From: a virus
Lineage: Duplodnaviria; Heunggongvirae; Uroviricota; Caudoviricetes
Strand: one strand, 5' to 3'
Length of the DNA stretch: 64,000 nt
IMG/VR virus record: IMGVR_UViG_3300025944_000008
Positions 36,931 through 39,012 of the stretch are shown in pieces. The notes beneath the pieces were generated by a model that saw only the letters and a program-made list of their open reading frames with translations, searched no databases and was not told where the DNA came from. Positions within the stretch are counted from its first letter, which is position 1; each line of letters opens with the position of its first letter. The position numbers and the translations under genes were made by a program.

Positions 36931-39012
36931 ATGATCCCGAACACCAAGGATCGTGAGCTCGCCTCGAGCCCCATCGCCGCCAGCGCAAAGTTCGGTATCT
37001 CCCTGAAGGACTCGCCCTTCATCATGTCGATCCTCCGAGACCAGATCTACTCGGACAAGATCATGGCGGTTCTTCGCGAGTACAGCGCGAATGCCTGGGA
37101 CGCCAACCGCATGGCGGGGCGAGGCGACAGGCCCATCACGGTCACAATCCCCACCTCGATGGCGCCGACGCTGAGCATCCGGGACTACGGTCCTGGGCTC
37201 TCCCTCGACGAGGTGATGACTGTCTACACACAGTACGGCGCCAGCACCAAGCGAGACAATGACGACGCCGTCGGCATGCTCGGCATCGGCTCGAAGAGCG
37301 GCTTTGCCTACTCGGACAGCTTCACTATCACGTCGTGGCACGACAAGAAGAAGCGCATCTACGTCGCTGCCCTCGACCAATCCGACGCAGGAGTCATCAA
37401 CCTCATTCACGAGGAGGACTGCAAGGACGATGAGACCGGCATCGAGATTTCCATCGCCGTCCGGTCGAATGACGTCCTCGAGTTTCACAACAAGGCCCGC
37501 AAGCTCTTCACGCACTTCGACCCGCAACCCGAAATCAACATCGAGCTGCCGCCTCCACCGTCGGCCGCAACGAAACTGAAGCATGGCTTCATCACTGACC
37601 AGCCAATGAATGGAGGGTCGCACCTGTGGGTCGCCACCATGGGGTGCATTCCCTACCGCGTCGATCTCAGCCAGCTCCGAGCCGAGAACAATAACGGCAA
37701 CGGCATCGCCGAGTACCTATTCCGGGTCTCTGGGTCGCTCTACTACAAGATCGGCGATGTGCAGATCAGCGCTTCTCGCGAGGAGCTGAAATATAGTGAG
37801 CGGACGAAGCAGGCGCTGATCTCGAAATTCGCCGCGCTCGTCGACGAATTCGTGCAGCACACGTTCGACAGCCTGGAGCAGGGAACTCTCACCTTCTGGG
37901 AGCGCCGTCTGAAGGCGATGACGCTCGCTGCCATGAAGTTGCCGATTCCAAAGAAGTACTCGTACATCACCAAGGACTCGATCGACATCGATTACGCGGC
38001 GAAGCACTTCCGGTTCACCATTCACGGAGGCGCAGTCCGAAGCATCGCAATCGACACTCGTTCGAAGATCATCCTGCGGGACGACGACAAAGCGCTCAAC
38101 GGCTATCATCTCGATTGGAGGGACTACCTCGTCGAGAGGCTGGACGGCTCGACATGGGCTGAGGTCGAGGCTGAAATCCAGGAGATGCTGAAACTGGCAG
38201 ACCTGGTCGGCATGCCAGTCGAGAAGATCTCCACGCGATCCTGGTGGACGAACGAGAAGCAGCGCAAGAAGCTACAGAAGAAAGCCAACAAGAAGCACAC
38301 CGTCGCAACTTTCGAGTTCAACGGCGCGCTCAACACTACGCCACGCTCAAGCTGCTGGAATATCTCCGAACGCACTCCTGCAGACACGGACGTCTACGTC
38401 CTCATCAACAAATTCAAGGCGGAGGGGTTCGACTTCTATCAGTTGTACGGCCAGGACATGAAAGTTGCGAAGCACCTTGGTGGCGCATTGCCCACAGTCT
38501 ACGGGTACAAGACCACCGAGAAGGCGCCCTTCGATACGAAGAAAATCAAGGGCACGGAGTACAGGGTCTGGAGAGAGGAGTGGATCAAGACCCTGATGAC
38601 GGCGAAGAATCTCAAGCTGTTCAACTACTGGGAGTGGGCGCAGAGCCCGGAGAACTCCTACCACAACTACGACACCCTTCCGTCGAAGAACACGATTGCT
38701 GACATCATCGCTCGCTTCGGGAGCGACCACCTAGTCAGCGACTTCTTCAAGCGGCAACTCGCCGCTCGTCGCGTGTTCAAAGCCGGAAAGATGAAGTGGG
38801 ACCTCTTGCAGGTGTTCGGCTGGGTCAAAGAGAGGGTCTACAAAGACATCAAGAGCGAGTACGAGAAGACGCTCGACGACATCCTCGATACCTACCCACT
38901 GCTTCGCTCCGAGGGCATCACATCCCTCTGGCACGGTACCAACGAGAACAGAAGCGCGTGGTTCGATTATCTTGAGATGGTCGATAAGTTCAACAAGCTC
39001 ATCGTCGAATAA
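36931..39012 (+). CDS. Hsp90-family (HtpG-like) GHKL ATPase
   Basis: LREYSANAWDANR (cf. LRELISNASDALDK), IRDYGPGLS (cf. IDTGIGMT), GASTK, GMLGIGSKSGFAYSDSFTITSWH (cf. GQFGVGFYSAFLVAD) ; 693 aa. Confidence 0.6.
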   Translation: MIPNTKDRELASSPIAASAKFGISLKDSPFIMSILRDQIYSDKIMAVLREYSANAWDANRMAGRGDRPITVTIPTSMAPTLSIRDYGPGLSLDEVMTVYTQYGASTKRDNDDAVGMLGIGSKSGFAYSDSFTITSWHDKKKRIYVAALDQSDAGVINLIHEEDCKDDETGIEISIAVRSNDVLEFHNKARKLFTHFDPQPEINIELPPPPSAATKLKHGFITDQPMNGGSHLWVATMGCIPYRVDLSQLRAENNNGNGIAEYLFRVSGSLYYKIGDVQISASREELKYSERTKQALISKFAALVDEFVQHTFDSLEQGTLTFWERRLKAMTLAAMKLPIPKKYSYITKDSIDIDYAAKHFRFTIHGGAVRSIAIDTRSKIILRDDDKALNGYHLDWRDYLVERLDGSTWAEVEAEIQEMLKLADLVGMPVEKISTRSWWTNEKQRKKLQKKANKKHTVATFEFNGALNTTPRSSCWNISERTPADTDVYVLINKFKAEGFDFYQLYGQDMKVAKHLGGALPTVYGYKTTEKAPFDTKKIKGTEYRVWREEWIKTLMTAKNLKLFNYWEWAQSPENSYHNYDTLPSKNTIADIIARFGSDHLVSDFFKRQLAARRVFKAGKMKWDLLQVFGWVKERVYKDIKSEYEKTLDDILDTYPLLRSEGITSLWHGTNENRSAWFDYLEMVDKFNKLIVE

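Follow-up and report, generated by a model that had tools for sequence, protein, structure and literature searches.

The window, the whole stretch of DNA analysed here, comprises 64,000 nucleotides of a tailed virus (IMG/VR record IMGVR_UViG_3300025944_000008), and the gene in question lies at 36931..39012 on its plus strand. The original prediction placed a 693-aa open reading frame (ORF) at this position, and it exists exactly as claimed: it starts with ATG, is preceded by a GGAG ribosome-binding site, and has a coding GC content by codon position of 0.52/0.39/0.82, a strong third-position bias. Comparison of the encoded protein with phage protein families identifies it as rIIA. A PHROGs search assigns it to the 'RIIA lysis inhibitor' family (phrog_612, E=2.6e-95, residues 1-348), BLASTP aligns residues 22-381 with T4 rIIA at 28% identity over 360 aa (E=1e-29), and hhalign matches it to T4 rIIA with a probability of 99.7% and to the rIIA of Ruegeria phage RpAliso over residues 2-339 with E=3.7e-42. 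Judged by this homology, the ORF is rIIA, the GHKL-ATPase subunit of the rII module, and adds a member from a large, uncultivated phage to a known family.

The partner of the module follows 12 nt downstream. The next ORF (39025..40164, plus strand, 379 aa) matches the RIIB profile phrog_609 (E=2.1e-60) and T4 rIIB (BLASTP, 33% identity over 211 aa, E=2e-38), and is 54% identical to a gene carrying Pfam PF26926 (Phage_T4_rIIB) in the metagenomic relative L006. Its conserved core spans residues 4-231; beyond it come an acidic linker and a short helical tail of basic character. The order rIIA to rIIB is annotated in T4 and in Ruegeria, Streptomyces, Vibrio, and Escherichia phages, and it is kept in two metagenomic relatives (contigs of 195-207 kb), while in Arthrobacter phage Racecar the rIIA-matching gene and the next gene are both without annotation. 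Within the 1,055 positions of the phrog_609 profile, the N-terminal part matches rIIA and the C-terminal part rIIB, an arrangement implying that natural rIIA-rIIB fusions exist. Some relatives of rIIA are ~1,070-1,117 aa long, and one (P0097) carries a LAGLIDADG_3 domain (PF14528), suggesting an intein.

The window protein belongs to a crowded family. A homologue search returned 713 proteins at E<=1e-5; among the 120 listed, identities range from 39 to 86% and all but one cover at least 94% of the query. The exact protein is found in a large, uncultivated, tailed phage of ~185 kb (a 185,326-bp JGI contig). DNA-level comparison with cultured phages gave only short, chance-like matches, leaving this phage without a close cultured relative. 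The gene itself is common in phages, since a tblastn search with rIIA matches 2,912 of 50,697 phage records; among the matches listed, the informative annotations are rIIA and the remainder are hypothetical proteins. The earlier remark that such a gene is uncommon in a phage thus does not apply. What looks temptingly like a 'phage Hsp90' is a member of one of the most widespread accessory gene families of large phages, a caution for annotation, and no new chaperone system should be inferred from it.

The anatomy of rIIA was delimited from an AlphaFold2 model of the full protein (mean pLDDT 81), a second model of residues 197-693 alone (pLDDT 86), and conservation across an alignment (A1) of 41 full-length relatives. 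Residues 1-16 are conserved and appear unstructured. They are followed by an N-terminal Bergerat-fold (GHKL) ATP-binding domain of the Hsp90 type (residues 17-195; 36979..37515, plus strand), delimited by hhalign, PDB sequence matches, and the HATPase_c_3 model, which is found in 29 of the 41 relatives. On the same strand, this domain carries a YSDK motif (Y40-S-D-K43) and an N-box (L48-R-E50-Y-S-A-N54-A-W-D57-A) within residues 40-58 (37048..37104), where R49, E50, N54, and D57 stand out, E50 as the putative catalytic base and N54 as a putative Mg2+ ligand. The G1 box (I-R-D85-Y-G87-P-G89; 37183..37197 for D85 to G89) includes the putative adenine-binding D85, and the G2 box, at the hinge of the ATP lid, reads G115-M-L-G118-I-G120-S-K-S-G-F (37273..37305). 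The residues of all these motifs, among them E50, N54, D85, G87, G89, G115, G118, and G120, are invariant in the relatives and align with both T4 rIIA and Escherichia coli HtpG, whose counterparts are Y-S-N-K and R33-E34...N38 for the N-box region, D80-N-G-V-G for G1, and G121-QFGVGFYSAF for G2.

A conserved core domain spans residues 197-345 (37519..37965, plus strand) and comprises a beta-rich part and a long helical hairpin, remotely resembling the Hsp90 middle domain. Within it lies the loop I-S-A-S282-R283-E284-E-L-K (37768..37794, plus strand), a candidate 'arginine finger' that aligns with S335-R336-E337 of HtpG. S282, R283, and E284 are invariant in 41 of 41 relatives, and SRE occurs at the equivalent place in six of seven rIIAs from cultured phages, the exact string being absent in Racecar. 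The loop has pLDDT values below 50 in the AlphaFold2 model, which suggests that it is flexible.

The remainder, residues 346-693 (37966..39009, plus strand), forms a clade-specific C-terminal half predicted to consist of an alpha/beta region and a helical bundle. Among 1.84 billion proteins, 394 representatives match this region; among the matches listed, most carry it as the C-terminal end of similar-sized proteins. BLASTP and hhalign detect no similarity between it and the C-termini of T4 or RpAliso rIIA, and no relatives were recognised outside its own rIIA clade. The similarity to T4 rIIA therefore stops short of the full length, yet this is expected because the C-terminus of the family is highly variable, as was noted when the N-terminal GHKL ATPase domain of rIIA was described (PMC7824862).

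A comparison of the window pair with its characterised counterparts follows the same division. T4 rIIA and the window protein share the ~340-residue core, in which the GHKL ATPase is joined to a second domain bearing the SRE loop, and are of similar size (725 and 693 aa); both genes are followed by rIIB in the same order. In contrast, residues 346-693 are dissimilar and form a clade of their own, and the window rIIB is longer at its end. In this extension, residues ~235-379, an acidic linker of low complexity (DEEEGDEEEEDEPED...) leads into a helical, basic tail of ~50 aa (…ELRNFATHGLKIIGASKIPGGKTQLIAKIIEV), which is kept in L006 and absent from T4 rIIB. The tail looks HeH/Rho_N-like by eye, and Pfam gives no match in support. 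The closest cultured relatives are RpAliso, Rhodobacter phage RcXuper, and Streptomyces phages, whose proteins are 33-35% identical over the first ~320 residues and whose rIIA and rIIB genes are arranged in the same way. Their C-terminal halves, however, do not align, and their genomes, smaller at 125-150 kb, are without the syntenic neighbourhood of vault-protein-like and PARP genes seen in the window and L006.

The likeness to Hsp90 that led to the chaperone label is real at the N-terminus. Aligned by hhalign with a seven-member Hsp90 alignment, residues 17-187 score a probability of 98.4% (E=6.6e-15), and when the rIIA family profile is compared with PDB sequences, all 60 of the listed matches are N-domains of the Hsp90 family (best E ~1e-4, profile positions 25-189). 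The GHKL ATPase call of the original prediction is borne out, Hsp90s being the nearest solved structures by sequence as well as by fold. Its description of the N-box, G1, and G2 motifs as 'near-verbatim' Hsp90 is generous; the motifs are present, but identity to Hsp90 in the ATPase domain is ~25% over 161 columns. The best PDB sequence matches of T4 rIIA are likewise Hsp90 N-domains, and the Hsp90 flavour therefore belongs to the rIIA family and not to the window gene alone. Homology between the N-domains of rIIA and Hsp90, as read from these alignments, is secure.

Orthology is another matter. On the window rIIA, Pfam finds HATPase_c below threshold only, and HSP90 (PF00183) has no match at E<=1 either there or in the 41 relatives. 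The NCBIfam HSP90 model NF010683 reaches 33 bits against a cut-off of 455, over residues 31-141 only. Residues 346-693 align with Hsp90 at a probability of 0.3%, with no significant fold match and no detectable C-terminal dimerisation domain; the Hsp90 C-terminal domain is absent from rIIA. By family thresholds and by this missing domain, Hsp90 orthology is rejected. Phages do encode genuine HtpG, in Lak megaphages and other large phage records (55 in all), and these proteins share with rIIA an Hsp90-type ATPase domain in a large phage. The Lak protein, however, aligns with HtpG over the N and M domains (residues 16-463, 31% identity, E=1e-64), whereas the window rIIA does so over ~160 residues only and at profile level.

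These results bear on the proposal that the window protein is a true Hsp90/HtpG chaperone that folds capsid, major-vault-protein-like, or other phage proteins together with GroES-like and J-domain proteins. Its attractions are the N-domain motifs, the position of Hsp90s as the closest solved structures, a weak middle-domain-like signal described below, and the presence of both putative helpers in the window. The GroES-like gene does exist, here as 15444-15884 on the minus strand ~21 kb from rIIA, with a marginal Cpn10 match (PF00166, 22.6 bits against a cut-off of 21.1, E=1.1e-4) and a match to the PHROG co-chaperonin GroES (E=5.8e-6). The J-domain gene (25249-26322, plus strand, ~11 kb from rIIA) is also genuine, with PF00226 at E=2.1e-25 and an HPD motif ('RYHPDTN'), with the J domain joined to a protein-kinase-like one. 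The three genes nevertheless lie ~10-20 kb apart, the GroES-like one on the opposite strand, and nothing connects the GroES-like or J-domain gene to rIIA or the vault-protein-like gene. Real phage HtpG, moreover, is easily recognised (E=1e-64 or better for every listed match that ranks ahead of the weakest full-length one), whereas here the Hsp90 models fail, the dimerisation domain is not detectable, rIIA family membership is overwhelming, and rIIB adjoins. Unlike a morphogenetic chaperone, the rII genes of T4 and of four further phages are non-essential when Rex is absent (PMC11879866). A chaperone of this kind is thus very improbable. The J-domain gene also matches phrog_3043 'kinase' (E=8e-39) and, weakly, PADLOC PD-T4-6 kinase models, and its architecture is not that of a DnaJ-type co-chaperone, as the Zn-finger and C-terminal domains of DnaJ are missing.

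The comparison of folds hints at a weak resemblance beyond the ATPase domain. The top 50 PDB matches of the full-length model are all Hsp90-family chains (E down to 2e-14), full-length and N-M constructs filling the list without a single N-domain-only chain. Because the N-domain could have driven these long alignments, residues 197-693 were re-modelled alone. Foldseek then returned Hsp90 chains that include the middle domain as the best 17 matches, followed by topoisomerase IV and GyrB, with marginal scores (E 8e-4 to 0.16, TM 0.1-0.26). Hsp90 chains thus head the fold searches even without the rIIA N-domain.

The loop sequences point to the same region. The window protein reads 'ISASREELKY', T4 rIIA 'IAPSREALSL', RpAliso rIIA 'ITASREELSY', and the Hsp90 middle domain 'LNVSREILQ', where the arginine is R336 of HtpG, which we take to be the equivalent of the catalytic R380 in yeast Hsp82. 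In an unconstrained local hhalign comparison of rIIA residues 197-345 (122 sequences) with Hsp90, window residues 256-311 fall on HtpG 311-367 with a score of 34.0 (pairwise E=5.5e-4, probability 30%). Column-shuffled controls score 15.2±2.6 with a maximum of 25.4, and 0 of 150 reach 34.0. A search for homologues of T4 rIIA gave only sequences 98-100% identical to it, and the second set was therefore built from seven cultured-phage rIIAs, none from the window clade. It gives the same registration, with T4 253-285 on HtpG 315-343 and a score of 32.0 against 12.6±1.8 for the shuffles, so that the real profile lies ~6-10 standard deviations above the shuffles in both sets. When the SRExL pentamer was fixed and the flanks were shuffled, controls scored 16.6±2.9 and 18.3±2.1 (maxima 25.0 and 24.4). 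The real scores exceed these as well; therefore, the flanks contribute to the score.

Beyond the N-domain, the middle-domain loop shows a weak but reproducible similarity. That part of the domain after the ATPase, including the Arg loop, is homologous to the Hsp90 middle domain is plausible, not established, and this possible reach of the likeness into the middle-domain loop is the only part with some novelty; literature searches for a link between rIIA and Hsp90 found nothing relevant in the library covered. The two families share a Bergerat-fold N-domain with YSxK, RE...N...D, DxGxG, and GxxGxG motifs (E. coli HtpG, TRAP1, GRP94, and Hsp82) and an S-R-E-x-L loop that follows a helix-strand unit and aligns with the catalytic loop around HtpG R336. 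In contrast to Hsp90, rIIA fails the family models, has neither a C-terminal dimerisation domain nor a charged linker, and is paired with rIIB, and its known biology is counter-defence rather than general folding. The core of the rIIA family may have branched off from Hsp90 as a viral, highly diverged form that has kept the N-terminal ATPase and a middle-domain segment with its Arg loop and swapped the remainder for variable, clade-specific C-terminal modules, a proposal for which the balance is even. If true, rIIA would function in the manner of Hsp90, as a clamp or remodeller that is powered by ATP and acts either on rIIB or on part of the host defence, which would offer a concrete and mutable mechanism for the ~70-year-old rII puzzle. 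L015 (MT837560.1), from a human faecal 'Bacteriophage sp.' scaffold, belongs to the Hsp90 family but has diverged greatly, with 23.6% identity to HtpG over its full length. Its catalytic loop 'GLTASREALHDD' is nearer to the rIIA loop than the loops of canonical Hsp90s are, and the protein could be an intermediate.

An alternative is that rIIA, as a GHKL ATPase of the MORC/MutL/topoisomerase kind, is directed at phage or host DNA and that its partner rIIB binds DNA; protection would then be indirect, for example by hiding a DNA-protein intermediate from Rex-like sensors. MORC3, MutL, and GyrB/ParE rank low in the fold searches, and there are weak matches to the topoisomerase II large-subunit PHROG (E=2.6e-4), TopoVI-B, and BbrUII. 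The module also sits among genes of DNA and nucleotide metabolism (ligases, ThyX, adenylosuccinate synthetase, PARP), and in T4, ligase mutants are suppressed by mutations in rII. rIIB figures in a list of phage transcription factors given by Iyer et al. (PMC7824862), and RexA is a DNA-binding protein (PMC11077077). Hsp90s nonetheless rank above all DNA-acting GHKL proteins in every search, Pfam, NCBIfam, and fold searches find no Toprim, S5-type transducer, endonuclease, or other DNA-handling domain, and nothing in the analysis indicates DNA binding by rIIA or rIIB. A DNA-directed role is therefore unlikely. An outright topoisomerase, MutL, or MORC identity was rejected, the matches being weak and confined to the N-domain and the accessory domains absent.

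GHKL ATPases also occur in several defence systems, and a weak NCBIfam match to the BbrUII/HgiDII restriction enzyme (E=6.7e-5) is in keeping with a host-type defence GHKL protein, MORC-like or another anti-phage ATPase, carried by the phage for superinfection exclusion. The strong matches, however, are all phage rIIA, the conserved partner is rIIB and not a nuclease or other effector, and PADLOC models match neither protein. Such an origin is barely credible, and identity with a known defence-system GHKL protein was rejected for lack of a PADLOC match.

The window ORF is thus very probably the rIIA of a two-gene rIIA-rIIB module whose likeliest role is counter-defence against Rex-like abortive infection, in which a prophage-encoded system depolarises the membrane. 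This role is deduced by homology to the rII modules characterised in T4, N4, and further phages, which are marked functionally by the need for them on hosts with RexAB-type abortive infection and by rapid lysis when mutated. With rIIA and rIIB, T-even phages can overcome RexAB, and RIIB itself sets off a CARD-gasdermin defence system (PMC10312443). Modules less than 40% identical to one another, from T4, MM02, EdH4, SUSP1, and N4 in four phage subfamilies, are dispensable without Rex and become necessary when lambda RexAB is present (PMC11879866). In T4, insertion of a transposon into rIIA or rIIB leads to depletion only if RexAB is there (bioRxiv 10.1101/2025.11.20.689424).

The architecture of the protein suggests how such a module could work. 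The sequence data show to which family the protein belongs, that rIIB adjoins, and that the ATPase residues and the Arg loop are conserved; ATP hydrolysis, clamp-like closure, and a target in the host of this phage are inferred. ATP would bind in the N-terminal Bergerat fold, whose catalytic set is complete (E50, N54, D85, and the G1 and G2 boxes), and the flexible, conserved Arg loop of the following domain (R283) would complete the active site, as in Hsp90. The unstructured, conserved N-terminal 16 residues may serve as a swapped 'strap' at dimer closure, and the clade-specific C-terminal half, together with rIIB, would give specificity for the target or partner. The motif set and the Arg loop single out E50, N54, D85, and R283, which correspond to E47, N51, D81, and R278 of T4 rIIA, for a possible role of an Hsp90-like ATPase cycle in counter-defence.

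Several points weigh against this assignment of function. The window protein has only its first ~340 residues in common with the characterised rIIAs, and the target could differ. Its ATPase activity is a prediction from motifs. Transmembrane prediction finds no segment in either rIIA or rIIB, and a role at the membrane, if there is one, could only be peripheral. The molecular mechanism of rII, finally, is unresolved even in T4 (PMC10312443, PMC7824862).

The module lies within a tightly packed, co-directional array that runs from ~30.4 to 42.3 kb, with gaps around rIIA and rIIB of at most 23 nt. No terminator-like site was found on the plus strand between rIIA and rIIB or elsewhere in the array, and a promoter and terminator scan of 30000-44500 gave nothing above chance. 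The array encodes a major-vault-protein-like protein, a phosphoesterase, ThyX, a Zn-ribbon membrane protein, rIIA, rIIB, a eukaryote-type PARP, and a cysteine-dioxygenase-like protein, in an order largely syntenic with that of L006, a 207-kb relative. Directly upstream of rIIA, the gene at 35837-36922 (plus strand) encodes one or more RanBP-type zinc ribbons, one predicted transmembrane helix (~131-152), and a Cys/Tyr-rich C-terminal region; a PHROG search matched it to no family, and in L006 the same position holds two small genes instead, of which one matches Fic weakly.

Several other genes of the window merit mention. The vault-protein-like gene (30828-33623, plus strand, 931 aa), unusual for a phage, combines the shoulder domain of the major vault protein (PF11978, E=1.4e-23) with a weakly matching Vault_3 repeat, and is kept as a 937-aa gene in L006. 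Two genes downstream of rIIB, the eukaryote-type poly(ADP-ribose) polymerase (PARP) gene (40464-41888, plus strand) has WGR, PARP regulatory, and PARP catalytic domains (E=2.4e-33) and is kept in the relatives L005 and L006; according to PMC7824862, PARPs are rare in phages. It is followed at 41890-42309 (plus strand) by the cysteine-dioxygenase-like gene (phrog_4786, E=3e-23). Outside the array, an adenylosuccinate synthetase homologue (27553-28920, plus strand; Pfam E=1.6e-60) is labelled PurZ-like by PHROG. It keeps the Asp of its GDEGKG motif, which may mark PurA-like rather than PurZ chemistry. Two ATP-dependent DNA ligase homologues lie at 8439-9932 (plus strand) and 28917-30350 (minus strand), the second with an N-terminal LigD 3'-phosphoesterase domain. 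The phosphoesterase of the array (34256-34858, plus strand) belongs to phrog_547 (E=6e-54), and phosphoesterase genes adjoin rIIB in the Streptomyces phages Riptide and Annadreamy.

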